Of a stretch of DNA of 64,000 nucleotides, positions 4,229-60,969 are shown one piece after another. Numbering within the stretch: position 1 is the stretch's first letter; each line of letters starts with the position of its first letter. A program made the translations under genes and the position numbers. The stretch comes from Psammoneis japonica (lineage: Eukaryota): the NCBI GenBank assembly GCA_008632985.1, contig QPGO01000154.1, positions 1-64,000 on the forward strand. The letters are read 5' to 3'. The notes under the pieces were generated by a model that saw only the letters and a list, made by a program, of their open reading frames with translations, made no database searches and had not been told where the DNA came from.

Positions 4229-4229
4229 T

Positions 4230-5400: not shown

Positions 5401-5439
5401 TTTTGAAAGTTGCCACTTGCTGATTTAAATGCTTGCACA

Positions 5440-22357: not shown

Positions 22358-22789
22358 TGGGAGGACGTCCTTGTGGACTGCCTTCCACTTTTGTTATCCC
22401 AATGTATTTCAAATCCGAAAATCAATTTCTTTTCATCGAGTTTGTGGTTGTCGTTCCATCACTCAAATCGAATTCTTGCGTCTGGCGCGAGCAAAAGCAG
22501 TGGATGGAGATGGATGAATTCTGTTCGTTTGCTCCTCGCCAACCATCAGTCTTGCTTTGCGTTTTTCTCACTTGCGCACACAGAAATTGGTGGTGGATGT
22601 TGACGTCGCTTGTCGTAGAAAGGACACAGAGAACCTCGTACGAAATGTGTGGCTACAGAGGATTTCGGTACAAACGCACGGCCGGTGAGTCGGTCGCGTG
22701 GCGCCAATCAAAATTCAATTATCAATGAACTTATAAGATATATACTCTGGTTCAAGTTGGAAGATTGTCTGTGTGTTGTCGTGTCAGAC

Positions 22790-22935
22790 TACGGTACTAC
22801 TCCGTAGTATAAGTACTACTCTAGTAGTTGATTTCGGCGCGGGCACAAAACAGGACCATGCTCTCTCTAGCTAGAGTAGTAGCTACTACTCTCTCTAGAG
22901 TAGCTAGCTAGCTAGCTAGCTAGCAGTAGAGAGTA
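22790..22935. repeat. TA-rich low-complexity palindromic patch including (CTAG)n
   Basis: ctctctctagctagagtagtagctactactctctctagagtagctagctagctagctagctag. Confidence 0.8.
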
Positions 22936-23009
22936 AAGAAATCGAAAGCCACTCGTGCTGGAGGACAATGAGATTAAGAAGAACTATCGATCGATATAGC
23001 TGTTGCTTA

Positions 23010-24434: not shown

Positions 24435-26199
24435 GGTTGCTTGCGCTTTCCCTGCTAATTTCGTGGGTCAAACTAAGTTGGAAAGTGCGCTCTCTGCCGA
24501 TGCCACAACAGAAGAGTTCAAGTGGCGCGCGGTTGAGTGGATTTGGAGAGATTTGAAGTGGTTTTTGTGAAAATCGTGTTGTGAGAAAAAAATTGCAGCC
24601 AGCAGCCAAAATCGGTCTTGAGACAGAGGCTGGTTGTGCCATTGCCCAGGCAGGTGCGAGATCTCAGAGATGCAAGTGGATGTCAAAGCGATGAGAGCTC
24701 TGCAAGAGCCACCCACAGCTCCATGGCCATGTTTAGATGGGAAAATGCAAAACCTTGTCTTTCTGCCCTCAGTGTCTGAGCTGCCTGTGAGGCACGGCGG
24801 GCGGCAGCACCAAGACACACAACAGCTTTCGCTGCGGCAGCTGAAAAACACACTCCCGGCAACAGGCATGCAAAAAAAGACTTCTGCAGCAAGCCAAAAA
24901 GGGCAGCAAGCTTGAGTTCAGCTCTCAAAATGTGAAACGCAGATTGGCCCATTGAGAGTGGTGGGGGGGCGCTGCTGGTGTGTCGCCTGCCTGTGCAGCA
25001 CTTTGTCCGCGCTTTTTGCTTTGAGTTTCTTGGCTCTCCAGCCTCTTGTGTGTGAAATGTCACATGTCACAAGGCATCCATCACCCAGCTGTTTTGTTGC
25101 AGCATTGTCTGCTCTCCAAATCTGCTGACAAACAAACTCCTTCTTTTGTTGCAGCCACCATGACGCTCAACAACTGTCACACCACAGCGGTGTGCGGTGC
25201 ACCAACCAGCCAGACAACGCAGCTGATCATCAGCCAGCAAGCACACAAGCATGCACATGCATCAACATGCATCAAAAACAACTTCATAATTTCATGTGCA
25301 GCTGACACCCCCCCTGGAGCATTTTTTCAGTTTGTCAAAGTTCTCTCTGTTGTGCTGCCAGAGTCTTCAATTTTGGAGCCAGCTCAAGATCTGGCTGCAC
25401 AGAGACCACCAGCATGCCATTTGAGGTCATGACTTGGCAGGAGTTGCAACAGCAACACACTTCTTTTTTTTGTTCTCATGTGCGCACCACTTAAAAAAAA
25501 TGAGATCTGTTCATCTGGCGGGGCAATGATCTGATGTCGCAGGTGGGCAACGTGCCAACAAATTTTTGATTTTAATTTGAACATTCTTGCACGCTGTGCA
25601 AGAAATCTTGGTTCTGATTTCAACATTTTTGGCATGTCGTGTGCAAGAAAACTCAAATGTGACAAGCACATGGGTGACATTCCCGACATTTTCAAGTGCA
25701 GCACTTGGTCGCCTTTCACCGTGTGACAAGTTGCTTTCCATTCACTCCTCTTTTCACCATGAAACAAATTGCTTTCTGGTCACTCTGCTTTTCACCATGT
25801 GACAAACGGCTTTCCATTCAATCCCCAGTTCACATCACTTGCAAACTCTGCTTTTCTTTTCTTTTAAGGCCAATTTTGTTCTGACATTCAAATGACATCC
25901 TGTCTCTAATCCAACTTGCATTGGCTCCGGATGTGAGTTGATTCTTGGTTGATTTTGCTGTGTTGTTGTTGTGCACTGTTTGCCAGTGAGTGTTGCCATT
26001 CAGTTGCCTGCACATTTGTGCTGAGCTCCTTGGCTGCTGCTGTGGGTTGTTGTTTGCTCTGCCTTCTCCTGAACCCATTCAGGTTGAAGCACTGTTGTCC
26101 ATGGCCTCTGCTGCTGGAGTCTCTTCCTCTCTTTTCTTGTGTCCATTGTTCCTCCCTGCTGCTTCCCCTTTGCTGTTGCTCCAATCAGTTTTTGGAGCT

Positions 26200-27180
26200 G
26201 CCCATCCCTTCACACTGTTCTTTTTTTCCTCTTTCTTTTCTTTCCCCACGCACTCTCCAATTTCTTTGTCTGCAGGTGTTGTGCATCAACTCTGGCACAC
26301 TCTGTTCTCTCCTCCACCACCACATTGTGCAGCTCACTCATTGTGCCTTTTGATTCCACTCTGGCTCCATTTTTGATTTCTCTTTTCTTCCTGTCCCTGG
26401 AATGTGCACTTTGGGGGCACGGGCTGTGTTGGCTCTTGCACCTCTTGTCCTCCTTGAATTGGGTTTCTGTCTCCACCATTGCCATCATCATCCAGCAGCA
26501 GTGGTTGCACATGAGCCTTGCAAAAGCCTCCATGCTTGTCATCAGCCAATCACCAATGGCCTGGTTTTCCTCTGTCTCAAATTGTTCCACAACAGATGGC
26601 AAAAGAAAGAACTGAGCTGTTCTAAGAACTGGATGTGCACCGGTGGTGATGCCCTTTGCTTTTCAATGTCTGCTGCACTCTCTAGACCCCCGTGTCTGGC
26701 CATGGCCAACCAATGACAAATGTGTGAGCAGCACTTTCCATCCCATTTGCATGCCACCTGCATCGCATGTGCCAATCATCTTTTTCCAAAATGCCTCCTG
26801 TCTGTTGTTTCATCTCTGATTTAGTCTTTTCCTCACCTTCTCCTTGTTCAGCTCCCAGCAAGCTGTGCAGTCACTGTTGGCCACATTGAGGTGCTTGCAA
26901 ACCTTTTTCTGCATTTTGCTGCCAAACACCAACTCAACATTGTCATGCACTACAAACTTGGTCTTTGGGTGCACTGCCATCACAACACAGTTGGTCATTT
27001 GACCATCCATGAACTTCCTCTTGGCTTCCTCTGAGCTGACGACTAACATCCCTGCAATCTCCACATTTTGGGATCCCATCTCTGCCACATCATGGGTGCC
27101 AACTGTAACCAACAACACAGTCCGTGTCAGCAGGCATGCCCGTGTCTGTCTCAGTGTTGCTCTTGCCGCAATGCACATGC
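26200..27180 (-). mobile_element. Degenerate accessory ORF of the type seen next to diatom Plavaka-like transposases
   Basis: 'TSMEAFARLMC' and 'KGTMSELHNVVVEER' resemble the 'SDEAFALL...GWS...FNEL...V..DR' pattern. Recalled similarity only. Confidence 0.35.
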
Positions 27181-27699
27181 CTGATGAATTGTTTCATGCT
27201 GACATGATTGCCCACCCATCTCCACAGTGTTGTGCACACAATTTTTTTTCTTCCGCCTTGAATGGAGGCCAATTGTGCCTGCCAGCATGCCAATGGCCTG
27301 TCTTTTTTTCTGCTCCTCCTCTTTGAATGCCAAAATTTTCAAATGGGTCAGTTCACAACATCAGCTCATGCATTGTGGCATTTCGTTTGAATGGCGGTTT
27401 TTGCCATTTGCAGGCTCACATTGCATGCACACTGTTGCACATTGCACGCTAAGAACAATGACACTGCCACTTTTTGCATGCCAAAATTTTCAAATGGAGT
27501 GCCAATTTTTGTTGCTTTGCTCATGGTTTGCTTTCCATTCCCCTGTGCTCTCATCCGTTGCTTGTCATCCAGTCTTGGACCTCTGACCCATCATCCTTGC
27601 TTGTCTTGGCCCATTGTTCCTTGAATCTTGGAACAAGTGTTCCAGGGAAGTGTCCAACCCCCCGTGATGTCCCTCCATGGCCGCATGGACACCAGCACA

Positions 27700-30600
27700 G
27701 TGTGCCCTCAGTCCAATGAGTTTCTTTCATTTGCAAAACACCAGGTCTCCGCTGACTGTCGGAGGCCACCAATCAGTTGCTGGCAAGGGTTCCAATCCCC
27801 TGTCATGCATTTGCAGATGAGCTGCATTCAATGAAGTTTGGCCATCCTCAATGTCAATTGGTTCCCATTGACGTGGTGGCAGAGCACACATGATTTTTGG
27901 GAATCTGCAAGTGTTGTCTCCATGCTTGCATGCTGCCACAATGGCGGGAGGCAGATGACTCTGCTGGCACATGTGCTTTGCCACTTTCCTGTGGCTGAAA
28001 CTGAGAGGCAAAGTTGCTTTGTCCAATTGCTCTTCACAATGGACCCTGCTCCACCCCACAAACTCTTCCAAAATGTTGGGCATCCTCCATCTGTCAAAGT
28101 CCTGTCTGTTGAAGTCCAGCCATCCTGCAACAATGTGACAATTGACATCTCAACAGCTGCAGTGCAGCCTGCTTTCGTCCAGCTCATGGTGTAAATTCCA
28201 TGGGTGGAAATCTGCAATGGCACTGCACAATCACCCCACGAGCGCAGCCATCCTGTGTTTCTGCATTGAAGCAAACCTTGGATCACCCATGTCACTCCAT
28301 CTCTCCTTGCATGCATCGTCAGCCACACTTGTCTCTCGCAAAGCACGTGTTGTATGTTGCTGCATCTGTTTGTTCACTGTGTCCATTTTCAACAGGTTTT
28401 TCACATCAAATGTGAAAAGACAAAGTCCACAATGCTCTCTGTTGATGCCAGGTTACCCAGCTCATCCATTTGCAGGCAATGACAACAAAACCCCGGCAAC
28501 CACGCATGGTTTTTTTCCCTGTTGCTGTTCTTCATCAACTTGCTCATGATTTGTCAGATGCATTCTCTCTTGCCATCCATTTCACAGTGTCCTGGATTTT
28601 GCCTTTGTTGCAAAAAGATGAAAAGGGGGCATCAGTCATGACTTTCACCAACACTCAAAATTTTTGTTTCCGGGCAGTTGACACATCCTTTGCCACAACA
28701 TGAAATTTTAGTTTGGGGCAGTTGTCTCATCATCAGCCCAATGAAACTGTGCTGTTTCCTCAAACACCTTGATTGCAGCATCTTGTTGGTCCATCTTTTG
28801 TTGTGTGCAATGAAATGCTTTCACTTCTGCACATTTCTGTGCCCTCCATCATTTGAAGAGCAACCAAAATTTTGATTGCTGTTCTTCATTGCTTGTTTGA
28901 TTTTTGCTGATTTGTGACAGAATTCCACGGCACTGTCCCACAACTTGGCAACCCATCCTTTTGTGATCATTCTTCACACACAAATGAATTTTTTGTTGCT
29001 TGCTTTCTAGTCCCAGGTGCTCACAGTCACACACGACACCACATCACAATGTTGCAGCAACAACACAACAAGTTCATTGCCACACCTCCTTGCTGGGTCT
29101 CACCTTCTTCATGCTGGAACACATGTGTCCAACTGCCATGTTGCTGATGTTTTCTGCTTGCTGCTCAATGTCTCATCTCCCTCCCCTTCCCATTGGACTG
29201 GATTGGGAAAACAACAAAAGCTCTCGTCAATGCACACATTTCCAACCTGGTCGCATGTCAGCAAGAGGAGGAACTTGCTTTGCAAAAGTGTCTCTTCTGT
29301 TGGATTGTCCCCCACTGGCATGCTGCATCTCTTCCAACAACTTGACATGGATGGATTTCTCAGCCACTTCCACCGGCCAAGCTCTGGCAATGTGGCTGAG
29401 AATGCCCCATCAGCATTCCTGCACTTTCCACAATCAATGTCTGTCATTTGCACCATTGCAGCAGGTGGCAGAAGAATTGTCTTTGCAAGTGGCTAAATGC
29501 AGAGAGGCAAGTGCCAGGAGATCCACTCCATGTTGCAAAAGAAAGCATGACTGCAGCCCCAGCTGCTCAGGAAAAGTGTTCATCTGCCAAAGAGATGAAT
29601 TGTTTGTTCATTTGGTGGTTCTTGTGTGGAGGGACTTTTGATCAAATCACCAAACAAGATGTCATCAGAGTTTTGCTCCCATCTCCCATTTGGATTGTTT
29701 TGGGAAAGGAAGCAAAGAAGTCTCGTGCCTCACCATTTTGCAGTGCTGCTGACAAGGACAAACAAAGCACACATGGCAATGAAGGTGACACCATCAATGA
29801 CGCCTTCCCAGAGAAGACCCGCCATTTCGAGAGCAAAGGTTCCATCAGAGATGATGCCAATGAACAAATGACAGAAGAAGCAGGAAACAACTGTTGCAAC
29901 AAACCCCTCTTTGCCAATCAAGCTGAGTTGGACAACCATGATTTGTGTCAATTTGAAAATCAACAGGACTTTGCCATTCTCCTGCCAAGGGCCCAGAATG
30001 CTTTGCTGGAGAAGCAGCTGATGTTGCCAACAATGTGTTGGTCATTGGCATGGCATTTGATGATGAGACTGCCAACAAAGGCAACCAGGATTGTTGGGAC
30101 ACCGCACATTGTAAAGTGCCAGTCAAGGCCAGTTTCAATGTTCACACCATTGACTGTCAAACAACAAAAACTCCTGATCCAAACCACATGGAGGCCAATG
30201 TGCAGGCTCTTCATCCGTCTTCAATGGACATTGTCCACATGCCAAATGGACACCTCAACAGCTGGGTGTTGACAATTTTTCTTTCTTCAGTCAATCCTTG
30301 ACCCATTTTTGCCTGAAGCTGCTGGACGTTGGCAATGTCCACCTGCTGACAAACTTGCAGGTCACCAAGGGATTGTCTGACAACTGGCAACTGGCAGGTG
30401 GTGGGTGAGGTCTAGATTGTCAGGTGCCTTCACCAAGACCAATGAGAGGAGATGCCTCTCTTCCATCCAAAAGCGGTGCTGCCGCTGGAATGTTGTGGCA
30501 AGGCAGGAGACATGTTTCACCAGAGGAAAAGTTTTGGAGTTGCATTGTTGGAGGTCAGCTCACATTGGCACACATGTTGCTCATGCGATTGTCATCCGCT

Positions 30601-30700
30601 GACTCCAACTGCTCATCTCCCATTTGTTTCCAGACAAAGGGGGGTTGTGAGCAATGACCAACATGAGCCAGTTGCAAGGTTTGCATGTGATGTTCATGTG
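27700..30700 (-). mobile_element. Degenerate DIRS/Ngaro-like retroelement module (RT, RNase H, tyrosine recombinase)
   Basis: cat gtg gac aat (HVDN, 30241-30230) reverts to YVDD by undoing one TA->CA and one CG->CA change. The homologous block-1 copy shows RNase H-like 'KMDNVAAWSG' and YR-like 'FSSNSWWRCGA...RCWK'. Confidence 0.5.
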
Positions 30701-30729
30701 AATGTCTAGAAAGCTGTGCTGTCTGTCCC

Positions 30730-33170
30730 ATGTCCAGTCTTGTTGACACTGATCCAATCCTAGATGAAACCTTGGAGGCAACAGATGCCATCTGTGGCCA
30801 TTTCTGTTGTAAAACCAAGTGCACAAAAGGGGGAAAGAGCAAAGCAGATCTGCTTGAGGAGAAAAATTTCAAATGTTGGGTTGACAAGTGTCAACCATTG
30901 GACTCTCCCAATGGAAAGACAACAACACTGGGGAACTGTGTCTTTGATCCCAACAGATGTTGACAAATCACAAGCACAGTTGTTCTGGAATTTGATCTGA
31001 TGAATTTGAACAAGATTAAAAAGTGCTGGAGCAACCAGTTGTTGTTTGTTGAGAAAAAAAAGGGGCCAAATCAGTGCAGCTCCTTGACACCAACTGGCAT
31101 GCAGTGACCAGAACAGAATTGGCAACAAAACTGGTGGAGGACCTGGGTGGCAACCTTGGCATCCTGTCAAATTGCCGCAATCATCCATGTTCAGGATTGC
31201 GTCCAAGGGATCCCACTGTTGTCAACAAAAACAACATTTTGGGCATTGACACTGACCATGATCATGGCAGATGCTTGTTTCAAATGCTGAAGCTGTCAAA
31301 GCAGATTGCTGGAAGAGACCTTCTGTCACAAACCTCCAGCACAATTGAGGGTGGTTTGTAAAATGGTCTTGGAGATGAGTTTGTCACCCTGTCCAAAGCA
31401 CACAAACAAAGGAAGTTCTGCTCCATGGCTCTGGAATTAATGCAGCTGGGGGGAAGTTGAGCAGGAGCGGTGGTCGTGGAGTTGCCATGCCTGGCTGTCT
31501 CCCAGGATTGCCCAACCAAGCCTCTCCACACTTGCAGCAGTGGACACTGCAACTCTTGTGATGGTCATTCATGGTGTTTGCCAAAGAATGCTGGATGGAA
31601 CAGCACAATCACAGCAGGGAGCAACCAATGCAATGAGACGCAAGGTCACTGAGAAAAATAAAAAATGGCCCAGCTGCCCAGATGCTCTGTGGGCTGCTCT
31701 GAGGGAGTTCAGTGCTCACACCAGCTCCACAGGTGCTGCAACTTTTCATTTGGACACGAGCAATGGAAAGGAAAAGCATCATGATCACATCACTCCAGCT
31801 TTGTTTCAGGTGGAAGACTGGACCATGTGTCTTTCAGAAGAGAGCACCACAAAGCCAATCAAGAATTTGGTGCCAGTCACAAACAGCCACTTCACCCACT
31901 TGGCACAAACACAGCAGTGGATTGTCAACAGCCAGTTGAACAAGCTGGAATTAAATGTTGACTGCCCTTGCACAGAGTTGCTCATGACCATCTTGAAGGA
32001 GCACTTGGAGATGATTGATCTGTGCACACTGAGCAGCAAGGAGGAAATTTTCAACACCATGGAAAGAATGCCATCCATGGAGGACACAAGCACAACAACA
32101 GATTGCAGTGAGGGCAGGTGCATCATGATGAAAGAGGGTAAAACTTGATTGATTGTGATGGGGTGCATGGCATGGCTGTGGCTCCTCTTTTGCAACACCT
32201 GTGAAGGATGGGTCCATCTGCAACACGTGACAGAGTGCAAAGCATTTGTGTCAATGGGGCTCAATGGCACTCTGCTGCTCATGAGGACAATGCTAACTGC
32301 AATCTCCTTGCCCACAAAGGCAAGTGTCATCTTGGATTTGCAGAGGCGAGCCACACAAGAAGTGCCTTCTGCAAATGGTCAAAGATGCCAAATGTGGGGG
32401 AGATCCCAGCAAAGTTCACAGTTCTCCCATCCCATGTGGCAGAACTGCAACAAAAGCCTGCACAATGGCAAACCCAAGACAAAGGACTGCCCACATCATT
32501 TTGGTTTGTTTGTTGGAAGAGCAAGACTGAGTCCTGCAAAACCCGAATTCAACAGAGCAAGAGAAGGACACAGCTCATAGATTGACAATCAACCCAAACA
32601 AGCAAAAGGCAATGAATCAGCTGGAAGCAACTGGGAGATCAGCTCCGCTGGGCAGCGTGAGAGGCACTGTGCATGCACAGATGGTTACCTTGGTGATTGT
32701 CAGGCAGAGAACACAGCCTGTGCTGTTCCAAATGAAGATGAAAAGAATGGTTTCTGTTGCCACCTGGTTGACACCACAGCATCCAACAGTTCTGATGCAT
32801 CTGGCAGCAGGATTGACACATCCAATGCTCCAAAAATCTGTTAAGATGTGTGGGGAGTGATCATGCATGCCAACAAAATGTTGGTGTCCACAGCCTGCAT
32901 GGACCAACTGTCTTGCTGCCTGCATCATTTGAAGAATCATGGTCTGAAGGAGGACTCAATTTTTTTGCATGATGACAGCACAGTCTTCTTGCCCATGAGA
33001 CACAAGGAAGTGTGCACTGCCGCGGCAAGGACACACAGTTTCAAACACAGGACAGAGTTCTTCTCAGTTGACAAATGGTGTGGGCTGGAGGAATTTGTTG
33101 CAAAATGCAACAACACAATGGACCCAGACAGTGTTTGGTCACACTCAAAATTTGGAAAGATCATGTGAGG
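30730..33170 (+). mobile_element. Degenerate opposite-strand coding remnant, possibly MULE/SWIM-type transposase
   Basis: Longer protein-like fragments on + (30730-30963, 31074-31361, 31540-32148) and a Cys cluster 'CNTCEGW...ECKAF'. Family assignment is weak. Confidence 0.25.
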
Positions 33171-33199
33171 GGACAAGCAATGTTTTAAACAATTTGTCA

Positions 33200-36100
33200 C
33201 TCTTTGCACACACTCCTGCCCCCAGAGCACAAATCGCCATCTAAAAAGAGTTCCAGCCACTCTTCCTTCATGTCCACGACAAACAATGTCTTTTTGTCCA
33301 ACAACTCGCGATCCAACACAGTGCCTGACAAAGACAAATTGGCAGCTTCTTGACTGTCCCCTGAATTTTGTTTCTGAGCTTTCTTTCCTTTCTTGCATTT
33401 TTTTCCTTTCTTTCCATTGTCCGTCAGCACCATCTTTGGCAAGACCACACTGAACCCACCTCCCACAAGCGTGTTTTTCTGAGAACCGCAAAAGGTGCAC
33501 TTGGGTGTCATGCCCTCCATGTGCCTTTTCCTCCTCACTTTGGGTTGAGCATGTTCTTCCAAATGCAACAACCTCCTGTCTGTTGTCACTTTTAAAACAC
33601 ACCCATGCAGTGGCATTGGGATTTAGGTGTCTGTCCCATGATTGTCGTTTCTGTGTACAACCTGAGCAAAGTCATGCCATCTCCCAGCCTTGCAACAATT
33701 CAGATGGGCAGCATGGAATTGCAAGTTGTGTTCCACCTTTAGATTCAACTCAGAGTGCACCACAACGTGCCTCTGCATTACACTCAACTTCTGTTGTCTG
33801 CACAAAAACTCATCAACATCCTCCTCCAAGTGAGTGCTTCTGTCTCTTTTCAACTCTGTCACTGGTGCATTGCAGTGGACATTCAAGGTGGTTGAGCACA
33901 AACAGTGCATGAACCAAGTCATTGTGTGATTTTAAACTTGGTTGCAAATGATTGGATTTGCCACTGTTGTGGCCAATCAAATTGTTTGCTTGCTCCAACA
34001 GAGTCTGCTTGCACAGTTGGCTTGCAAGCTGATGAGTGAACTCCTCTTTGCCAGACTGCCAGTGGTGGCATCCCATCCAGAGAAGATGCCCAGGCAATGA
34101 AGAGCAGCAATCAAGTGCAGCAGATCATGACTGATCTGGCTCTGCAGCTTGAACATTAGAAGAACAAGGTGGCATTTGAGATTGACTTGATTGGTGTGTG
34201 TGTGTGTGTGCAAAGAAAACCACAGTTGCAAAAGGAGTGGAACAATGACAATTTGTTGAGCAACAGAAACAGGTGTTCCACATCATCACAGTGCACCAAA
34301 CAACTGGTGGGCTGGAGATCCATGCTGTTCAATCAATTGTGGAATGGAGGAGGCAAGTCTTTTTCAATTCCAGAGCAAAGAAACCATTGGTTGTGGTCAG
34401 TTGACTGTGTGTGAAGGGTCGGACATTGGTCTGTGCAGTGTCTTGCGCTTTCATTGACAGAAGAGTCATTTTTGTCAGGAGTGAAGAGTTGTTGGTCAAG
34501 ATTGACATTTCTTGTTTGCATCACATAATGTTGTGGCACAACTGGGCTTGAGTGGTGGTCATCTGCAAAATGTGAGGACACCTGCAAAATGTGAAGACAC
34601 ATGTGCAACAGGCCATGATGACAACATTGATTTTCCAGGAAATCATTGTGAGTGGGGTCAGTGGGATTGCATTCTTTGTTTGCATGGGGCTTGTTCACAG
34701 CTGCAGCAGCTCCATCTGTGGAGGCCACCAAGGGAGATTCTTCATTGGTGCAGTGCTCTTTGTTGTCCTCCTCAGGAGTTTGTTGGCATTTGTTGGATTC
34801 ACAGGCAGACTCGTCATCCTCCAATGCAGCCTCATTGGGATTGTTGGCTTCTTGTTCCACTTCTTTGCATGTGCAACCATCGTCTTTGTCTTTGCAATTG
34901 CGGTCATCTTCTGGAGGACCTTCATTGAACTGGGAGGCTTGCTTTTTCTTTGTCTTGTCAAAATCAGGATGACATCAAAGATGGAGATGCTGCACCCCTC
35001 CTTGGTCTGACCCATCAGTGCAAGTGCAAAAAGCTTGCCCATCTTTTGGTCACAGGTCAAACCAGACAAGGTGCAAAAACCACTGCACAGGCCAGGACAA
35101 CCAGTGGAAAGTTTGATCTCTGTGCAGGCCTGCACCACTGAGATCCAAATGTGCGGTTGGCCAAATTGTTTGGTCGCCTTTGGCAGAGTCAGGCAAATCA
35201 TTGACTGTCGATGGAAAGCATTTGAGGGACTGTGCCACCTTGGAATGTGTGCATTGGGTGGGGGAGGCAAAACCAAACACCCCCTGATGGTTGTCTCCCA
35301 CGTGCAGAGGAAAGAAATTGTTGACGGTGTGTTGACAGAACACCTCATGTGGTGTGGTGGTGCAAATGTTTGTGCACCAAACAACAGCACTGCATGCCAT
35401 CAAACACATTGATTTGGCTTTCAACTTCAACATCACAATGTGAATTGTTGACTTGATGCACAAATGCCACAGACTGTTGGTGGAACCCAGTGGTTTTCCA
35501 AGAGTGGCTGCCGTTAGATGACCCATCACTTCCTGAGAAAAATGCTTGCAACAGTGCAGCAGTTCATTGCTGCATGTCCAGGATGCATGGCAAGCATGAC
35601 TGATGCAACAGGTGTTTTTGCAACCTGAAACATGGCCGGTGACTTTTGCTGCATCACACCGGCATTGCCCATCAAAGTGATGCTGTGAACAATTGTGCAC
35701 TTGAAACAGCACTGAGCTCCCAGTCAGACAAGGCATGTTGGCAATTCTTGCACTGCAATTGCAAATGCGAGAATGATGGATGCAGTGCAGTGACAGTTTC
35801 TGACATTTGTCAAGCATTCACGCCAAAAACTTGCCAAAAACAGCATTCTCAGTTTTGCAGCCAGTGAATTTTGGGATGAAGCCTGGAGGGTGCCATGCTT
35901 CAAAATGCCTGTGTGCACCTGCCTTGATGAGAGTCCACAGAGAAAAGAAATGGCTCCATCAAATGGGGTGCAACCTGTCTTTCCTGGTTTTGTTGGTGTG
36001 ACACACAACAAAGACAGGAAAGGATCCAGGGAGAGTGGGACCACAGAATCCACACAAACAGTTGCTGCAAGTTTCTCCATCCTTCATCATTTCTGCATCA

Positions 36101-37140
36101 TCACAAAGTTGCCAGTCTTCATTCTTGCCCAGCGTGGGTTCACGGGAAAGGACCTGAGACCAGCATGACACGGGAGGAATGTCAAGATTGGAAAGGTCTG
36201 GAAAAAGAGGATCATCAAACAAGTCCTGCAGCTGAAGAGAAAGGTTGCACACAGGATTCTGGGAGACAGCTTTGCAGTTTGTTGTTTTTGAATTGGTTGA
36301 CAATGGACACAGACTCAAGGGGACTCTCTTCAACACCAGAGTGATGATGCTGGGCAACATTGACTCAAGCTTTGAGATGAAAATTCAAGAAGAGGGGACT
36401 TGGTGGTTGGCAAACAACCCGCCACTCAAGAACTCCTCTTGTGCTGTTCCAAGAATTTGTCAGTTGCGCTGATTGGGACACCCTTGGAGCAACACAGACT
36501 CAACATGTGAGCCACAGAGATGATCTTGCTGTTGTGTGCTTTGGGAACAACAAGATCCTTGTTGGTGGAAAGGTGCTCAACTTGATCCAGCGCAGCAAAA
36601 GAACCTGATTTGACAACAGTGGCAGCACCCTGGTTGACAGAAGGAGATGCAGCACCATCAAACAAATCAGAAACAAAATCTTTGTTGTGAGGGTGCTGGC
36701 ATTCTGAAACATCATTGGTGGCTGGCACAACGGCAGTGGTGTGAGAAGATCATGGCTCTTGCACTGGGGTGCCTGCATGAGTGGATCTTAGATGTGAGGA
36801 TTGTGTTGTGCATGAACTTTTGGAGTGGACCCCATGTTGGAGTGAGACCCCACTGCAACAAATTAGATGGGGAGGGGGGGGAAGGTGGAAGAGGGAGTTT
36901 CATTGCCCAGTTCTTTGGATTCTCCCATTGGCGGAAGTTCACATGATTGTCCTTGTGAATGCTCTGCAAAAAGGAGTTCTGAGGTGATGCAGAAGACCAG
37001 TTGGAAGGAAACATTTGCCACACACGGACAATCATTTGCCACAGCAAAGGAAGGCACCAAACTGGCTGGTCACAACAACAGAAATTTTGTCATGCAAGCA
37101 CGCATCTTGGATTTGTGTGCAACCAGACGTTGCCCATTGT
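33200..37140 (-). mobile_element. Degenerate Plavaka-like DNA transposase
   Basis: Ordered remnants LQDLFDDPLF..LSNLDI (~36200), GDNHQGVFG...PMHTFQGG (~35270), WKI..HGLLH (~34620) and FHAAHLNCCKAGRWHDFAQV (~33690), resembling the recalled 'HPNY...WYDW' motif. Confidence 0.55.
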
Positions 37141-37501
37141 GAAAAATGATTCTCTTCCTTTCTTGGAGGTGAGGGCTGCACTTGTCACAAGATTCTCCAA
37201 GCTGGTGCATGTTGACACTTCTTGTGGCCACACCTTGTTGTCAAGAGTCTTTGAGTTCTCATCATCTGCCACTTCTGCAGTTTCAGCAGAAGCAGCAAAA
37301 GCAGCACATGGCTCCAAACCGCATCTTTTGGCAATGTGCTCCAAACTCAAATGTCTCAAAATGTTCTTGAAGTGTTGATGTGTGACAAGGATTCCTGAAA
37401 ACTGTTGAGCAACTCAACCAAGTCATGAGCCGGGTTGCAAGAAGAAATCTGACAGTCTTGGTTTGCACACCATCAACACAGAAAAAATCAGACATCTCAA
37501 G

Positions 37502-38192
37502 CCATGCTGCTGTGAAAAAAAGCACAGGATTGCCAGCAACCAGTGGAAAATGTTGATTTGCTGCACATTTGTCAGACAAGCAAGTCATCAAAAGTTTGTT
37601 GCAGAAGATGGAAAGAGACCACATGTGCTCAAGCCTCCAATCATTGTGAAAATTCAGGAGCTCATCTCCAGCATGTTCAGAGTCCAGAAGAAAACATGCC
37701 CTTCCACACTTGTCCATGCCAGCATGAGTGAGCCAAGAAGAGAGCTTGCACTCTGTGGTTGCAAGTCCTTGCTGGAAATGCAATGGTGCAAGACCTCCAG
37801 GCCATCATTTGAATGAACAGAATCAAGAGCAACCTGCTCAATGCCAAAGATGGCGTGAATCTGGCAGTCAGAGAATTTTTTTACCCAGGCGCTGCATTCT
37901 GAAAGGCAAAAAAACACTCAATGCAAGCCAGCCCCAGCTCTTGAGGATGGCAAGACCACCATGATCCCAGAGGAGCTCATCACAGCTCCACATCAAGTCA
38001 CACTTTGTTTGGAAAGTCTGGAGGTGAGCAGCTTGCCACTCATCACCACCACGACCTCCTGCAATCTCTCCACTGCTGTGCTGCACATGACATCTCAAAG
38101 ATTTGACTCCAGACACTCACAAGGAAGCTCCAGAGAAGGAGCGTGGCACATCTGCAACCAGGGCAATTCCAAGAAGTTTCCACAGCAGGTTT
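37502..38192 (+). repeat. Left arm of a ~0.68 kb inverted repeat (partner 42870-43547)
   Basis: Long identical stretches with the reverse complement of 42870-43547, e.g. both translate to VLKPPIIVKIQELISSMFRVQKKTCPSTLVHASMSEPRR. Confidence 0.92.
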
Positions 38193-38452
38193 GGATCAGG
38201 TGACGTGAGATAGATGCGATGCCGCTTAGATTCAGATTCAAAGCCCAAGGCATTTTTGCTACATCGTTTTCACTGTGTGACTCATCTTTGCTGCCGCACG
38301 AGCTGGGCAACAATGAATGCATCACGTTCCAATGCAGGTCCGATCAAGCGTCGCTCCTCACAAAAGAAAAGATTCCAAATCTATCTCGTGGGAGAGCGAT
38401 CTTGTGCGAAAGCGCGTGGACTTTGGCGCAAGAAAAATCGACGTGTGCTTGT

Positions 38453-40847
38453 CTAACACAAAGACGTTCGAATTCCCTTCGAAAGAATCTTCACTGCAGC
38501 AGGAGGGACAAAGCCGTCGGCAATGGAAATGCGCCCAGCCTCAATCTCAGAGTGCAGTTTGACAATGTTGGACTCAATGGAATTGTTGAACACAAACCTC
38601 TTCACTTGCACCGCTTTCGTTTGTCCAAGGCGGTGGATGCGACCTGCCGCCTGGACTTCCGCAGCGGGGTCGATGCACGGCTCGAGAAGACACACAATCG
38701 ATGCCGCAGTCAACGTGACCAGACGGCAGAACAAATGTGTGAGGTCAGGGTCGACATGGCAAAAGACAAGTCTCGAGCGAAGACACCACTACTTACTTCC
38801 AACGTTGCCAGCCTTCAGCGTAATGACGAAGACTGCTGGTGTAGAATCACTTTCATCTTGGAACTTCCGGATTGCCTTGTCTCGGGCAGGGCCACTTGTA
38901 GATCCGGTAAACTGGCACACATCCAGACCTTGGTTCTTGAGTGCTTCGATCACTGCCGAGTGCTGCCGAGTGTACTGCGTAAACACAACAGCACGGAGCT
39001 TGGGTTGAGAACGGCGCACAAGCTGCAGATCGTTCAGAAGAGCCTTGGTCTTGGTGACGGCGTGGCCAGCGAACGTCATGCGAAACAGAAAGCACTGCTC
39101 AAGAGTAAATATTTTGGATCCTTCTAGTTCGTAACCACGAATGATATCCGCGTGCTTGTTGGCTTTTCCAAGCATGTCCCGTTCGAGCGGTGACATGTCC
39201 ACGCACAAGGTGGTCGAGGTGGACGCAGGGAGAACCAAAGCCTCGGATTCTCGGATGCGTTGCTTTTTCGTGTGATGAATCATGACACGCTTCAACTGTT
39301 CAACAAGAGCGTCGAATCTCTCCTTCCCATTGGGTAAGGCCGATTCAAAATCCCGAATCAACCTCAAAAGCACCTCATCGTAGCTTCCGGAAAAGAGGAG
39401 CTGAGATGCAATCTCGCGAATGGAGGAAGTGAACGGAGTCGCTGTCACACACCACCTGATTTCTGAACAAATCTTTCCGGCCTCATGCTGCTTTGCTGAC
39501 GATCTGTTTGTTTCAAATAAATGGCTCTTGTCGGCAACAACCCGGTGGAACTCGAAGTTGTCGGTGATGCTTGGTTTCCATGTAAAGGTGGAAGTGGAAA
39601 TGATGACATCTAAATCAACAAGCTGGCGTGGATCGAATTTCTCTGGTTTCCGTGGCACCTCGCAGCACGGAGATTAGGAGCATGCTTCTTGCATTCGTTG
39701 AGCCACTGGCCAACCAGCGAAACGGATGTTAACACCACAGCAGTCTTTGCTGGAACCCTCTCCCACGTCCTGATCATTTCCCTCCATTCCCTCCATTTCT
39801 TTTTGTCATAGTCTGGGTCTCCACCATCGCGAAAATGACTCAATCGAGAGAGCTCCTTGGACTTGTGGTCAAGTCGACGAGGTGGCTTCTCCCAGTCTTG
39901 CAGTTTCTCTTCAACTGGGGACAAAGTCGGCAGTCTTTTCAGTGCCATGGGATTGGAGGCAACAAGAGCAAGAACAACGGCGGACTTGCCCATTCCAACC
40001 TCATCGCACAGGAACCCCCCCTTGGCCTTGCCGCCGGCAGAGATCTCGCGATCTTCCACGTCCAGCATGAATGCCAGGCTCTGACGTTGGCAGTGGCGAA
40101 GGCTCGTGGAAAAGAGGTTCGCAGGAGGAACCTTTTCAACAGGGCATGCCTGAGTCACGGCATCCAGCAACTTACGAATCGAGAAGTCACCTGCAACGGT
40201 GCAGTTGACGGTCCTGGCACAGCAGCCTCAGCTTGCTGTGGGGGCACCAGCATTTCTCCTCGTTTCTTCACGCTTGCGTCTCCACTGATCATCACTGTAC
40301 TTGGCATGGCAGTGCTCCTTCCATGAGGCACAAGTAGAGGCCAAAATGTCACACACGTAGCAAAAACAGTTTGCGCAGTGCTTTGAGGGATCGACGTTGT
40401 GAGGGTGGCAATGCAGTTCTCACGCGAGTGGGGAAAGTCAACAAGAGCAAAATGACCTGTCGTTCCAACCACAGCGACCTCTTCATCGTCCTTCTTCTCC
40501 TCGTTGTCAGTGGAGAACAACTGGGCCGTGGCAGACTTGACTCGAGAAGCAGAGACCTCACGAACATCGTCGTTGTTGTTTCCAGACGAAACTTCTTCTG
40601 TGTCTTCTTCGCTCGTCGAAGCACTCATGGTCGACAATGGAGGATTGGCACTCGCCACTGCTTGTTCTCCGGGTGTCGTGACTGGAAGCATCACCTCCTC
40701 TCTGTCAGGACAACCCACCGATGCGCTGCCAAGTGAGTTCTCGGTCTTGATTCGCTTTGAAGTCACTTTCAGTGTCGCCGCGGCTGGCCTCTTTCCGTCT
40801 GCGTCATCGTCATCTGAAGACACCAGATCAATCACGTTCGTCGACAT
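38453..40847 (-). pseudogene. SNF2/RAD5-like helicase with N-terminal Cys/His zinc-binding domain, disabled
   Basis: Motifs GGFLCDEVGMGKS, VVADKSH, RWCVTATP, VVFTQY and QAAGRIHRLGQ; N-terminal FPHSRENC...HCANCFCYVCD...W..HC. In-frame TGA at 40230-40228, frameshifts at ~40405 and ~39640, and a broken splice acceptor at 38721-38719. Confidence 0.85.
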
Positions 40848-40990
40848 AGTCCACTGCATGGATGTGGCTGTGAGATTTCGAGCACAGTGCGCATTCAATG
40901 ATGAGAAGCAACGAAACTTGGAGCCGTCAGCCTCATCGACATCGTGAACTGCCGAGACGCCGCATCCCGCATCAGCATGGCATGCCGGTG

Positions 40991-41243
40991 TTCATCGTGA
41001 GACCCCACAAATGCGGAGGGACCCTCCTGCAGAGCTCTGTGCAAATTTTTGTATGTGGCACTGAAACATGTAGCCTGCATGCGCAAAACTGGTGCAGTTT
41101 CTACGACAAAAATCCGAAAAAACGCCCAGTTTGCGAGATGGCTCTGGTGCAAAACCCACGTGAACAGTCCCCATACATTCACGTAGAACTCCACACATTT
41201 CCGGGTTGCAGGTCCCTCCGCATTTGTGGGGTCCCACGATGAA
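40991..41243. mobile_element. MITE-like element, 253 bp, 33-bp terminal inverted repeats
   Basis: ttcatcgtgagaccccacaaatgcggagggacc (40991-41023) vs reverse complement of 41211-41243, 1 mismatch. Flanked by TG on both sides. Confidence 0.75.
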
Positions 41244-41399
41244 TGCATGGCATGCTCAATCTTTTTTTGGCGCGCACCCGCGCCCTCTCCATCGTTTCGA
41301 GAACGGCCCATTTGGACAGAGAGACCTGTTCAGCAAAGCCAGAAAAAGAAAAGTGAAAGCTGGCATTTTCCGGTCCAGCCAGCATCTAAGAAAAAGGAG

Positions 41400-44130
41400 C
41401 AATGCCGAGAACAGCTTTTTGGACACATGAGCAACACCAATGACAAAACAACTGGGTTGCTTGAAAAGGTTGCCAGCGACAGATCATTCTTTCCCCCCTT
41501 TTTTTTTTGTCAAAAGCAAGTCATGTGAACAGGCTGTTGGCTGAGCACCTTCAAAAGTGCAAGGTCTCTTGATGCTTTAGCAAGACACAGCTTTCCTCAC
41601 TCTGGGGCCCTGCATGCACCTGACAGCTGCATGCAAACACCCTGCAGCACACGCCACACAGCAAATCAGCACAGGAGGGTTTCATTTTAGAGACAAGATC
41701 CTGAGAGGAAACCATTGTTCTCACACTTCTTTCAGAAACAAGCCTGGGAGCATGCTGTGCATGTGGAGAGCAACATTTTCAAACCTTTGCAATGGCAGGC
41801 CACCAGCACATGGCACAATCTCAGGGGCACCAACAATGTGGGTCCATCCACCTGCCACAAGCTGGAAATTTTATGACTGCAGTGCTAGATGAGCATTGCT
41901 TGGCAAGTTGGGTGATCACTTTCATTTCAGTTCAGACCAACTCTTGTGGGCCAATTGAAGTCAAATTGTGCCCTCTTTTGTTGCAGGGTGTTCTTGCCTC
42001 TGATCCCAGAGTCAATGCCTTTTTTTTTTTGTGTTTTGTTGTTTCTTCAGCAGCCATCATTGTTGTTGTTTGTGGTTGTCGAACATGCAGAGCACCAAAA
42101 GCTGAGGCAGCAATTTGAGAGGTGAGATCTGTTCCCCTTGTGAACAAGAACAGACATGTGGAAAGCACCATGGGTTCTTGGCTGTTGTTTGAAGCAATGT
42201 GGTGGGTGCTTCTCACCATTTCAATGGAGTGTCAGTGTCAGTGCTCAACTGTGCCAACCATGTGGCACAGTGTTGCACCAAGAATGTCACAACCAACTGT
42301 GCCATGCTGCAAGAGAAAATGGCCCAAGTGCAAAAAAAAAAGGGGTGGCTGGGAGCCACCACCCACAAAACTGGAGCTGGTGCACATGCTGCTTGGGCTG
42401 TTGTTCCTTGCCATGTCATCACTGTTGAGCCCAGTGTGGAGGAACAGGGCCTGTGGCAGTGACAAAAGAGGAGCACATGGTGCCTTGGCTTTGACGCCAC
42501 TCTGTCACCTCTGTGCTCCCAAAAGCTGTCCTCCAACCAGGAAAGTTTTGACTGACCCAGTCAGAAGATTGCACTCAGATGACACACAGAGATGGGACAT
42601 GCAACAGTTTCAAACAACATTGACGTGGTGTCTGCTGCTGTTGCAATTGCTGCTGAGTTTCCTTGCATGCAGAGCATTGCTGGTGAGCACCCAAGCCACT
42701 GGTTTTGACAAGTGCTCCTGGAGTGGGAGCTGATGGCAAGGATTGGTGCAAGCACGCTCTTTTCTTTTTTCAACTTTGATGTTTCTTTCAGCTTTTCTGG
42801 CACATGCTCTTGAGCATTGGAGCAGCTCATCTTGGCATTGTGGCAGGCCTCAAAACTCACTGTCACTTTAAATCTGCTGTGGAAACTTCTTGGAATTGCC
42901 CTGGTTGCAGATGTGCCATGCTTGTGAGTGTCTGGAGTCAAATCTTTGAGATGTCATGTGCAGCCCAGCAGTGGAGAGATTGCAGGAGGTTGTGGTGGAA
43001 ATGAGTGGCAAGCTGCTCTCCTCCAGACTTTCCAAACAAAGTGTGACTTGATGTGGAGCTGTGGTGAGCTCCTCTGGGATCTTGGTGGTTCTTGCCATCG
43101 TGTCCTCAAGAGCTGGGGCTTGCATCAAGTGGTTTTTTGCCTTTCAGACTGCCTGCACCTGGTTAAAAACTTTCTCTGATTGCCAGATTCACACCATCTT
43201 TGGCATTGAGCAGGTTGCTCTTGGTTCTGTTCATTCAAATGACAGCCTGGAGGTCTTGCACCATTGCATCTCTAGCAAGGACTTGAGCGCAGAGTGCAAG
43301 GCTCTTCTTGGCTCACTCATGCTGGCATGGACAAGTGTGGAAGGGCATGTTTTCTTCTGGACTCTGAACATGCTGGAGATGAGCTCCTGAATTTTCACAA
43401 TGATTGGAGGCTTGAGCACATGATGTGGTCTCTTTCCATCTCTTCTGCAACAAACTTTTGATGACTTGCTTGTCTGGCAAATGTGCAGCAAAATCATCAT
43501 CCTTCTGCTGGTTGCTGGCAATGTGCTTTTTCTTCACAGCAGCATGGAAAAATCTTGACCATGAGATCACATGTTGTCAGCTGGCTGTAGGTGGCACTTG
43601 TGTGCGGGCTCCTGATGGAGCTAAGACCTGAGTGAGGTGGACACTGTTTCCAAAAAGTTTGGCACCAAGTGTGCTCAAGTGTTCCCCACTTTTGTTGTCA
43701 AAGGCATGTTCCTCCTGCACAAGAGAGCCCAGCAAGGCATTCAGTGAGGTGTTGCTTTTCTGTCAGCGAGTGCAAGTGATCCAAGCAAGTCAGGTTGGAA
43801 GGAGCTGGTGAAGCAGACACATTTTCTAAAGGCAACCCAGCACATCACCATTGCTCTGCTGGCTAGAGAGCATGTTGTCATTGAGCAGCATGTGGGTGCT
43901 GCCTTCAAGTTCACACAAATTGCAAAAGCCATGCTGGTGCAGTGACAACACTTGGAAAGGGTGTCATTGCACCCACCAGTGCCTTCAAGCAGCAGAAGCT
44001 CAACCCAAGAGCTCTGCCAAAACAGAGATCATCACAGAATGTGCTCTGTGATTAGCTTCAAAGTTTGTGGGCCACCAGGAGGCACATTTGTTGTGAAGTG
44101 CAAGGAGGATGATGCTTCTACTGCCAGTGG
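41400..44130. other. CpG- and TpA-depleted block (block 3)
   Basis: Same signature. TA and CG resume at about 44130-44200. Confidence 0.88.
42870..43547 (-). repeat. Right arm of the inverted repeat (partner 37502-38192)
   Basis: See left arm. Confidence 0.92.
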
Positions 44131-56116: not shown

Positions 56117-56625
56117 GTGCGTGAGTCAGTGCGCCGTCCATCGGCCAGACCTTTGCGGTAGGCGGTATGGCTGGTAGCATTCTGCCTGTCCATCCGTCCT
56201 CAAAAATGTCACTCAAATCCCGCAAGCCGCAAGCACCATGAAGAAACCACTAACACCCTGCGTTGACTTTGCTTGCTGCCGCTGGTGCGTCGAACCTCGA
56301 ACCAATACCAAGCTGTACAAAGCAAAAGTTGTTGTTGTCTCCTCTACGAAGAGTTTCTCGAATTTCAGGGATCTCTCTTGCTGTGTTAGTCAACGTTGAA
56401 CAAGACTTGTTCAAGTCATTCTGCATCATACCGAGCCACCATAGGCGTTGCGCAAATATCAAAGTGTCCCAAGAGCAGTATCGCTACTTCCTTGTTCGGT
56501 TTTGTTGTCTGTATTTCTTGTGATCGAATGTGCTTGTCATTGAGCTTTCGTGAATAAAGTGGAATTGTAGGAGGGAAAGTTTTTTGTCCCCTGAGCAAAG
56601 TCTGACGTTCAATCAATCATCGATT

Positions 56626-59600: not shown

Positions 59601-60969
59601 GCAAGTTGGACCAACAATCCCAGAGGGTCAACCAGCTCCGTCTCCTCCTCCGTCTTTCTTTGGCAGAAGCCCGGACAGCTCAGACAGTTACTACGATGAA
59701 AGTGATTCAGATGAGTCCATCTCCGATTCCTCTGAATCATCGTTTTTGGATGCACAGGATATGAAACAGCCGATAAGCAGGGTCAAGACTGCAAAGTATG
59801 TGTTCCTGACCCTCAAGCAAGCTGTCATGAATTCAATTTTCATCATAACGATCGGCGGTACAGGCTTCTATTTCATCGAAAAGATGTCCGCTATCGACTC
59901 TTTTTACTTCACGACGAGTCTTTTAACCACTGTCGGTGCGTAGTCCCTCATCATCGGGTTGTGTTTCTTTCCCTGTGTGCATGGCGGTTTGCTTTAAATG
60001 TTCGCGCCGCTTCTCATCTTTTGTTTCCGTTCTTTTTCTGACAGGCTACGGAGATCTCACTCCTGTCACCGCACCGGGAAAGCTTTTTGCTACGGTTTAC
60101 GTTCTGGTTGCTGGTACTGTGCTTCTTCATAATATGTCAACGATTTCCATGATCCCATTAGAACTCCGAAAGCGAAGGATAGAACGTGCAGTACTGACGC
60201 AGGTAAGATAGCATGAAACCCTGGCTGTTTAACATTTCTTTTCCGAGGTGCTCTTCTCACTTTGTGGTTGTTGTTGTTGTTGTTGTTGTTGGTGGTGATG
60301 CTGCTATTGTTCTGTGTTTAGTTTGGAGACCAGCTGGATGATGCTACGCTAAGAGAGCTTGCTACCGGCCCGCTTGTTCGTCGACTCCAGCTCTCTGCCA
60401 AGAATCAGTCTGGTCTCGATGAATGTACGAGAGAAATGTTTGCTCTTGCCATGCTGGTCCGTCTCGGGAAGGTTACCGAGCATGACATCCGAATGACCTT
60501 TGCTGCCTTCCGCCGACTTGATGTTGGAAACGACGGTATTTTGAATAGCCAAGACATTATTGTTGGCATGATGCAGAAACGGCGACAGTCCAGTGTTACC
60601 AACATGGCTGCCTATGCGCAGGAAGCAGCGGCGGCAACACGCGAGAGTAGTGCGAGCAGCACAGCTAGTACTAGACCGTGGTACTTCTTTGGCAGGCATG
60701 GTTCGGTTCATCAGGTGGTCGAATCACCTGAAAACGTTCCATTTCAGTATGCTTCAGCTGAAGATATGGCCCAATCTGAACAGCAGGCGCTCCTGAATGC
60801 GTCCATGTCGGTCATGGACAATAGATACAGTAGCATGCAAATGTCTCACGTACGTTTGAACTCGTTTGACGCGGGCGTGACCAGGAGGAGCCCCCAAGCC
60901 ATGGATGTGGAGGCTGGCTACTACAACCAGAATTATCGTCGATCAGGTGCCATGTCAACTTCTTTTTGA
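56626..60969 (+). CDS. Two-pore-domain K+ channel (TPK-like) with C-terminal EF hand; exons 56626-58695, 58789-59935, 60045-60202, 60322-60969
   Basis: Pore loops YFAVITLTTAGLGDFVP and YFTTSLLTTVG|YGDLTP, EF hand FRRLDVGNDGILNSQD, and GT-AG introns that keep the frame. Confidence 0.9.

Follow-up and report, generated by a model that had tools for sequence, protein, structure and literature searches.

Transitions at TpA and CpG have probably disabled a Rad5-like SNF2 helicase gene enclosed by repeat domains in the diatom Psammoneis japonica

We analysed a window of 64,000 nucleotides (nt) from the diatom Psammoneis japonica (contig QPGO01000154.1 of GenBank assembly GCA_008632985.1, positions 1 to 64,000 of the forward strand), in which a gene of the SNF2 helicase family lies between two repeat domains that are nearly free of the dinucleotides TpA and CpG. 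Read from its open reading frames (ORFs), the gene runs on the minus strand from an ATG at 40847-40845 to a TAG at 38455-38453. ORFs, Pfam domains, tblastn, an alignment with 18 homologs and the dinucleotide composition together describe 38453-40847 as a Rad5-like SNF2 helicase gene that is broken in this allele. We propose, with a probability of roughly three in four, that the transition process acting on TpA and CpG in the repeat domains has also hit the enclosed helicase gene and that the allele in the window is a recent pseudogene, as its residue, splice and frame lesions taken together suggest. Three things are directly observed: the composition of the DNA, the residue changes relative to homologs and the sites at which a second allele or copy differs. 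A preliminary description, made from the sequence alone, had presented the gene as a host-type SNF2 helicase caught mid-mutation; what it observed is confirmed and its interpretation is supported.

TpA and CpG depletion around and within the gene

Over the whole window the observed/expected ratio (o/e) is 0.33 for TA, 0.64 for CG and 1.44/1.43 for CA/TG. In the depleted bins (1-10000, approximately 24500-38200 and 41500-44000) TA o/e falls to 0.02-0.09 and CG o/e to 0.07-0.32, and the mean of TG and CA rises to 1.75-1.98; the rest of the window, referred to here as normal DNA, has TA o/e of 0.44-0.76 and CG o/e of 0.88-1.06. The helicase gene is flanked by two such blocks near-free of TpA and CpG, a left repeat domain at 24500-38200, which shares diverged repeat families with 1-10500, and a right repeat domain at 41500-44000. 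Typical o/e values in these flanking repeats are about 0.03 for TA, 0.1 for CG and 1.9 for TG/CA. Between them lies an island of 3.3 kb (38200-41500) with sharp CpG borders, which retains CpG (CG o/e 0.55-1.28 per 250 nt) and has reduced TpA (o/e 0-0.55, 0-8 TA per 250 nt). TA is near normal at 38751-39250 (13 in 500 nt) and lowest at 39751-41000 (6 in 1250 nt) and 38251-38750 (3 in 500 nt). The presence of these minima near both ends of the island suggests that the loss grades inwards from both borders.

The coding sequence of the helicase gene has a TA o/e of 0.19 (26 TA) as compared to 0.44-0.63 in ten control ORFs taken from the normal DNA of the window. The mean control o/e would predict approximately 70 TA (Poisson P 1.7e-9; with the lowest control as reference, 5.7e-7). 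With respect to TpA, the picture of a gene caught mid-mutation is borne out, its value lying between those of the controls and of the flanks (0.02-0.09). At two domain edges, 10001-10750 and 24501-25250, TpA o/e is 0-0.06 and CpG o/e is 0.33-0.89. Since TA is gone or reduced at these edges and in the island while CpG is partly or fully kept, the TpA arm of the process is faster or farther-reaching than the CpG arm.

The TA that survive in the depleted domains (1-10500, 24600-38150 and 41550-43950) are mostly found in the context TAA/TTA (82%, 76/93), as compared to 38% in normal DNA. TAC, TAT and TAG-type contexts are almost erased, and TTAA is enriched approximately six-fold among the survivors. 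This suggests that the process prefers TA not followed by A, and such a preference would make Tyr codons and TAG splice acceptors prime targets. Alternatively, the survivors in TAA/TTA context may be new mutations. A patch rich in TA (22751-23000; 29 TA in 250 nt, o/e 1.51) is present in normal DNA, approximately 1.5 kb short of where a depleted domain begins.

Identity of the helicase gene

The gene belongs to a family that is conserved in diatoms. Searching by tblastn with one homolog (P0003) recovers the helicase reading split over three frames and with a retained intron. Pfam identifies SNF2-rel_dom (PF00176, E 1.2e-10 and 1.5e-9) and Helicase_C (PF00271, E 2.7e-5) on the gene pieces, and the presence of both the SNF2 N-terminal lobe and the Helicase_C lobe places the gene among the SNF2-family ATPases, in the Rad5-like branch. 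All 18 homologs align over the whole length of the gene with a top identity of 43-44%; proteins from Thalassiosira profunda and Cylindrotheca closterium are among them, and some homologs are encoded on contigs of 0.1-1.4 Mb. The architecture common to the diatom homologs is a Cys-rich N-terminal domain (DFPHxRxxC ... CxNCYCYVCD ... W..HC) followed by the SNF2 core and Helicase_C. The Cys-rich domain of the window copy (DFPHSRENC ... HCANCFCYVCD ... W..HC; 40300-40439, minus strand), in which the same motif is aligned in 8-10 homologs, is split by the first of two frame breaks. Homologs carry a precomputed PF27679 on this domain, a model which is not part of the Pfam version scanned here.

The best solved-structure match of P0003 is RAD5 (6l8n, E 9.7e-33). 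In common with RAD5 and the Rad5-Rad16-like SNF2 ATPases, the diatom family has an insertion that separates the two lobes of its SNF2 ATPase core. It differs from them in that the Cys-rich N-terminal domain is its own, and in the window the copy is broken; the Pfam scan of the gene pieces and homologs found no RING or HIRAN domain. A viral origin was considered for the helicase and dropped because scans of viral contigs gave no close relative: the scan with a single helicase protein found nothing, and the profile scan returned only 6 loci with 25-40% identity over at most 142 residues. The recurrence of the architecture in diatom proteins, some of them from such large contigs, and this lack of close relatives in viral contigs make the label 'host-type' a fair one. 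The window as a whole is nuclear DNA of a eukaryote; its ORFs are large and its introns few and short. Its serine palmitoyltransferase ORF (12027-13559) shares 72-79% identity with diatom proteins (Nitzschia, Craspedostauros, Attheya).

Residue changes at conserved positions

The codons singled out in the preliminary description (40092-40090, 39532-39527, 39277-39275 and 40230-40228) were all located by reading frame and alignment. Three changes fall on positions that are invariant in the homologs. The first is a TGC codon (40090-40092) which places Cys in LRHCQ (Y253C, TA>TG) where Tyr is present in 13/13 homologs. The second lies in the Walker B box (39521-39532), which reads DKSH instead of DESH (E441K); GAC AAG at 39532-39527 corresponds to GAG>AAG after a C, i.e. 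CG>CA, and the homologs have DE(S/A/G)H, and hence Glu, in 18/18. The third is a CAT codon (39275-39277) which gives His in IHHTK for the Arg of IRHTK (R525H; CGT>CAT, CG>CA), Arg in 18/18 homologs. The assignment of the last two to CG>CA, as made earlier, is upheld, and the concern that orthologs might themselves carry Cys, Lys or His is answered, as these residues occur at the three positions in 0/13, 0/18 and 0/18 homologs. Two more changes are found in the region of the SNF2 core. D384N in the QWEDE motif (39697-39699) is a CG>CA change at a position with Asp in 17/18 homologs. T370A (39739-39742; Thr in 16/18 homologs) reads t|GCT in the window and c|ACT in the other allele, with adjacent differences at 39741 and 39742, the ancestral TA having straddled two codons.

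The earlier claim of five Tyr-to-Cys changes consistent with TA>TG stands in part. It holds for LRHCQ and for IVCLLEP, where a TGT codon (38690-38692; TA>TG) faces Tyr in 13 and Phe in 4 of 17 homologs. In DVCQFTGS (TGC, 38915-38917) the homologs have Tyr in 7, Phe in 5 and Leu in 4 of 18, and none has Cys. QACPVE (codon at 40146; His 6, Tyr 5 of 12) and ARCHG (codon at 39657; Phe 13, Tyr 4, Cys 1 of 18) are ambiguous. Y253C, Y694C and T370A are A>G or T>C changes at TpA when polarised against the homologs. In Tyr-rich columns, defined by Tyr in at least 38% of the other sequences, the window protein has Cys in 4/10, while Cys is found in 0/101 such cells of the 18 homologs. The window protein is correspondingly low in Tyr (6/768 residues, 0.8%, versus 1.1-2.8% in homologs) and high in Cys (3.1% versus 0.7-2.6%).

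At columns that are at least 80% conserved among at least 12 homologs the window protein deviates in 17/179 cases, of which 2 are TA>TG (Y253C, T370A) and 4 are CG>CA (D384N, E441K, R525H and one more). We further classified those single transitions that would restore the consensus, using columns with at least 8 homologs in which the window residue is seen at most once; the alignment model misreads three residues near the second frame break, in an unconserved stretch, and this yields one R>P row in the classification. Transitions of the type TA/CG>TG/CA account for 6/11, 9/18 and 14/29 at column thresholds of 0.8, 0.6 and 0.5, respectively. The expected share is 0.18, being the share of nucleotides within TA or CG in the ten control ORFs (2 x (401 + 728) / 12465), which gives binomial P of 0.007, 0.002 and 0.0002. 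The possibility, raised beforehand, that the substitutions are not enriched at ancestral TA and CG is thus contradicted (14/29 versus 0.18 expected). Leave-one-out counts of deviations at conserved columns do not single out the window protein; its changes are unusual in type and not in count. The protein otherwise still resembles a member of the family, which fits recent decay.

Lesions of the reading frame and the splice acceptor

The gene has DKSH in place of an intact DExH Walker B box, and instead of one continuous frame it shows two breaks, a TGA in frame and an intron lacking its acceptor. The frame breaks and the intron are lesions that the preliminary description did not contain. Frame break 1 (40408-40409) lies between ENCI and HPHNV, and frame break 2 (39637-39638) lies after ARCHG. 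Both are seen as frame changes in tblastn and both are one base short of the other allele or copy, represented by contigs of the public DNA run X1; at break 1 the latter reads ENC-V-V-HPH, and at break 2 a run of A is one A shorter in the window. The TA/CG process does not account for these two frameshifts.

A 78-nt intron (38719-38796, minus strand; GTAAGT ... CTGG) interrupts the gene between GNVG and TLTAAS, where the homologs are uninterrupted, and contains a TAG stop. Excising exactly 78 nt gives GNVG-I-TLTAAS, which is the homolog consensus. The acceptor dinucleotide is GG (38720-38719), and reading of the sequence finds no AG in the final 50 nt of the intron. The acceptor was probably lost by cTAG -> cTGG, a TA>TG change. 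This seems plausible because a putative in-frame 93-nt intron of the potassium-channel gene (58696-58788; GTAAGA ... TAG), which joins the ORF 56584-58731 to the potassium-channel ORF 58813-59943, also ends in TAG.

The TGA codon (40228-40230) lies in the linker that separates the Cys-rich domain from the helicase core. As described earlier, it is in frame with the helicase reading. Its attribution to a CG transition is less secure: the linker is variable in length, so the homologs do not fix the ancestral codon. An origin from CGA by CpG transition is possible, and an intron could hide the codon. A 26-nt GTAAGT..AG stretch at approximately 40175-40150 (DFSIRKLLDAVTQACPVE) was also considered as a tiny intron and dropped, as the helicase frame runs through it in alignment with the homologs.

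Comparison with a second allele or copy

One DNA sample (runs X1-X3) contains the stretch, and the contigs of X1 come from an independent k-mer assembly. A total of 207 X1 contigs fall on 37500-42000, of which 77 are at least 99% identical to the window, 60 are 95-99% and 70 are 90-95% identical. Over these 4.5 kb they differ from the window by 125 transitions and 22 transversions. The finer counts apply to the differences listed, which are 40 of the 147. Those within 38435-40800 number 25, including 21 transitions, and 16 of the 21 interconvert TA, CG, TG and CA. The window has TA versus CA at 3 of these transitions, CG versus TG/CA at 4 and TG/CA versus CG at 5; 4 sites make up two adjacent TG-vs-CA pairs (39741/2 and 40329/30) and the remaining 5 are of other types. 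The TG-vs-CA pairs are best explained as two independent hits on one ancestral TA. At 39741/2, where the homologs confirm the ancestral state, the other version retains Thr through a silent TA>CA and the window has acquired Ala through TA>TG. Polarity from homologs further shows V146I, P303L and R317Q to be derived in the window at CpG, and Y573C to be derived in the other version at TpA. The listed differences comprise 9 synonymous and 15 non-synonymous changes, and thus no constraint is visible in either version.

X1 contigs with depths of 36-92 agree with the window also in depleted sequence, showing one substitution and an 18-nt gap over 37981-38181. Over 38636-39014, which covers the 78-nt intron, there is no difference. 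This agreement makes an artefact of modified bases unlikely.

Repeat copies and the high-copy element

Self-comparison of the window shows that the depleted domains share diverged repeat families with 62-76% identity. TG versus CA is the top double difference between repeat copies, with 37, 38, 19 and 36 cases, the next type reaching 9 at most. Independent loss of the same ancestral TA or CG in each copy would leave such differences. Strand-coordinated (processive) mutation was considered and dropped, since TG and CA counts are balanced per kb and clustering is not convincing (runs test on TG/CA states between repeat copies, P 0.65, 0.91, 0.08 and 0.03); the hits look single and strand-neutral. 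An inverted repeat pair (37502-38192 versus 43547-42870; 89% identity over 706 nt) encloses the island together with 1.4 kb of depleted DNA. The arms agree in nearly all of their TG/CA states, with only 3 TG-vs-CA differences, so this pair was copied after depletion.

A high-copy 269-nt element (40977-41245) is present approximately 130 nt upstream of the helicase start codon. Its depth is 2000-2800 as compared to about 45-95 elsewhere, and it has short inverted ends (40980-41023 versus 41255-41211). One X1 contig joins 40976 to 41246 and skips the element, indicating another allele without it. The window copy of the element reads TG or CA at 7/7 listed differences, as opposed to TA (4) or CG (3) in other copies. 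The proposal that the helicase gene is the best evidence for TpA loss being mutational needs adjustment in this light: the gene is supportive, but the comparisons of alleles and repeat copies in the window are stronger.

Long ORFs are common on both strands of the depleted domains because TAA and TAG stops are nearly absent, and could be mistaken for genes. A Pfam scan of 84 ORFs of at least 110 aa in these domains gave none above cut-off and three weak matches at chance level. In normal DNA, a tandem duplication of approximately 215 nt (84% identity; 17186-17402 and 17415-17615) is found just downstream of the 3' end of a CCT-motif gene (17639-19018, minus strand).

Weighing the alternatives

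Several observations weigh against decay of the gene by spreading TpA and CpG transitions. The gene as a whole has a CG o/e of 0.88, inside the control range of 0.85-1.18, so no CpG loss is demonstrable at gene level; for CpG, the idea of a gene caught mid-mutation is supported at single sites and not beyond them. Spreading of TpA loss is not general: three further domain borders are sharp, and a hydrolase gene situated 370 nt from one of them has a TA o/e of 0.63. Among the 17 deviations at columns conserved to at least 80%, 11 are not of TA/CG type but other transitions, transversions or multi-base changes. E383L, beside D384N and at a position with Glu in 18/18 homologs, needs several changes and is not explicable by a single one. 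The window protein deviates at 4/88 invariant columns, which is not above divergent homologs (up to 6/94). Y253C, E441K, R525H and the TGA are not among the 40 listed of the 147 differences to X1. At each frame break the sole covering X1 contig has one extra base and restores the frame, with the extra base at a depth of 94.7 of 94.7 at break 1 (40408) and 79.3 of 79.3 at break 2 (39637). Since X1 contigs drop minority variants, they do not decide between an allele-specific deletion and an error of the window assembly, and both 1-nt deletions may be errors or specific to this allele. The TGA may be hidden by an intron, as an in-phase 57-nt GT..AG stretch (40247-40191) spans it; the donor of this candidate, GTGCCC, is unlike the two GTAAG donors seen in the window. 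Finally, word depth in X1 is 28-52 for contigs identical to the window and 47-143 for variant contigs, and the often higher depth of the latter means that the second version may be an extra copy instead of an allele.

The last point bears on the alternative that survives best, although we consider it unlikely, namely that the gene was hit because it was itself duplicated and recognised as a repeat, as in fungal repeat-induced point mutation (RIP), and not by damage spreading from its flanks. Variant contigs at 90-99% identity with depth often above haploid fit a duplication, and the inverted repeats at 37502-38192 and 42870-43547 that enclose the island suggest that the block may have moved or been copied. 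TA loss, however, is graded in a way that fits spreading from the borders, with its maximum towards the right border and within 500 nt of the left one, and the contig that joins across the 269-nt element has a haploid-like depth of 42.5, as expected of an allele. A protein search found no close paralog, which is a weak argument because the collection searched seems to be without the proteome of the organism itself.

That the gene is intact and working seems to us quite improbable. The frame breaks would then be assembly errors, the TGA would be intronic and the odd residues would be specific to the lineage of a divergent family member, as the frames restored in X1, the 57-nt stretch and a deviation rate at conserved columns within the range of the homologs would allow. 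Such a gene would have to function with Lys in place of the invariant Walker B Glu, which in SF2 ATPases is needed for ATP hydrolysis, and with Cys and His in place of an invariant Tyr and Arg. It would also have to be expressed across a 78-nt intron that contains a stop and is without an AG acceptor, in a stretch confirmed by an X1 contig. Its TA o/e far under all 10 control ORFs, and allele differences that, among those listed, are 15 non-synonymous to 9 synonymous, point in the same direction. The idea that the TA- and CG-poor blocks were not mutated in place, their composition being foreign or selected or a base-calling artefact of modified DNA, draws on the lack of recognised protein domains in their 84 ORFs and on the systematic errors that modified bases can give in some long-read assemblies, and is hardly credible given that repeat copies differ mainly by TG versus CA at the same site, that the high-copy element has TG/CA in the window and TA/CG elsewhere at 7/7 listed sites, that alleles differ in the same manner and that the independent k-mer contigs of X1 agree with the window in depleted sequence.

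A proposed mechanism and its relation to known systems

Recent decay of the helicase gene by the process seen in its flanks could be pictured as follows. Transitions at the DNA level would act site by site in the repeat domains, on either strand, and convert TpA and CpG, the two self-complementary pyrimidine-purine steps, to TpG or CpA. The process would be near saturation in the flanking repeats, and its TpA arm would have acted also on the 3.3-kb single-copy island between the two domains. There the TpA arm would have given the Tyr>Cys changes at LRHYQ and VYLLEP and Thr370>Ala, and probably two or three further Tyr changes together with the loss of the TAG splice acceptor. Single-CpG transitions would have given Walker B Glu>Lys, Arg>His in IRHTK and Asp>Asn in QWEDE, possibly also the TGA from CGA, and the two 1-nt deletions would add frame breaks to these lesions. 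The CpG arm may be the deamination of 5-methylcytosine, as in methylated transposons, and the TpA arm may be enzymatic, a deamination of adenine at TpA by analogy with a proposal for the alga Bigelowiella natans. A repeat or heterochromatin mark that bridges the small island may direct both arms. The small size of the island between two domains, the element approximately 130 nt upstream of the gene or an extra copy of the gene are possible reasons for the bridging.

On a wider view, for which we see about even chances, diatoms would possess an active DNA editing defence with two arms, directed by repeats or heterochromatin, which converts TpA and CpG to TpG/CpA as a mirror image of RIP, prefers TA not before A, with Tyr codons and TAG splice acceptors as its main victims, can bridge small single-copy islands and can destroy host genes. 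It would still be running in the sampled clone, since alleles carry independent hits on the same ancestral TpA.

The closest known system is the TpA hypermutation of integrated giant-virus and virophage DNA in Bigelowiella natans (Mettrop et al., bioRxiv 10.64898/2026.01.13.699255). According to the part of that preprint considered here, 230/231 mutations in two viral regions of mutation-accumulation lines were at TpA, and the authors liken the process to RIP as a form of defence, for which they suggest an ADAT2-like DNA adenine deaminase (bioRxiv 10.64898/2026.01.13.699255). Both systems change TpA to TpG or CpA depending on the strand, are confined to blocks and deplete TpA with a gain of CpA and TpG. 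They differ in several respects, as far as that part of the preprint goes. B. natans is a rhizarian alga and not a diatom, and depletion in its viral region is mild (Rho TpA 0.45), whereas the blocks of the window are near-saturated (0.02-0.09). No CpG arm is reported there, whereas the window blocks lose CpG too (o/e 0.07-0.32); in line with this, the listed allele differences include 9 sites of CG versus TG/CA, and the spectrum is not exclusive to TpA. The targets in B. natans are recognisable viral inserts, in contrast to the unrecognisable diverged repeats and the host gene in the window, and de novo events were measured there, which for the window are inferred from alleles and copies.

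Fungal RIP (Neurospora and others) is a repeat-associated C>T change at CpA, which creates TpA and removes CpA/TpG, and which can leak into adjacent or enclosed single-copy genes. The window resembles it in showing repeat-associated, dinucleotide-specific transition hypermutation with damage to a neighbouring gene. The signature is, however, opposite to C>T at CpA, with TA o/e of 0.02-0.09 and TG/CA of 1.75-1.98. CpG decay by deamination of 5-methylcytosine is known from methylated transposons and likewise consists in CpG>TpG/CpA loss confined to repeats. It leaves the loss of TpA unexplained, and in the window TpA loss precedes CpG loss at the edges and in the gene. In diatoms, transposons are methylated and many species carry a RID-like DNMT4 of unknown function, as stated in the part of the source considered here (PMC9998398). 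A full-text literature search for TpA-directed hypermutation in diatoms gave no earlier account.

So far, TpA-specific hypermutation is known from a single rhizarian alga (2026 preprint), and the present locus would extend the process to the diatoms, an ecologically dominant group. Here the process is seen near saturation and linked with CpG loss, and the direction of change can be read for individual bases from protein conservation and from a second allele. The process would carry a cost, as a host helicase gene of the DNA-repair type is being destroyed. Blocks that are poor in TA and CG and rich in TG/CA would provide a simple genome-wide marker of the process, and diatom cultures would offer a tractable system for finding the enzyme, for which an ADAT-like adenine deaminase and the RID-like DNMT4 are candidates.

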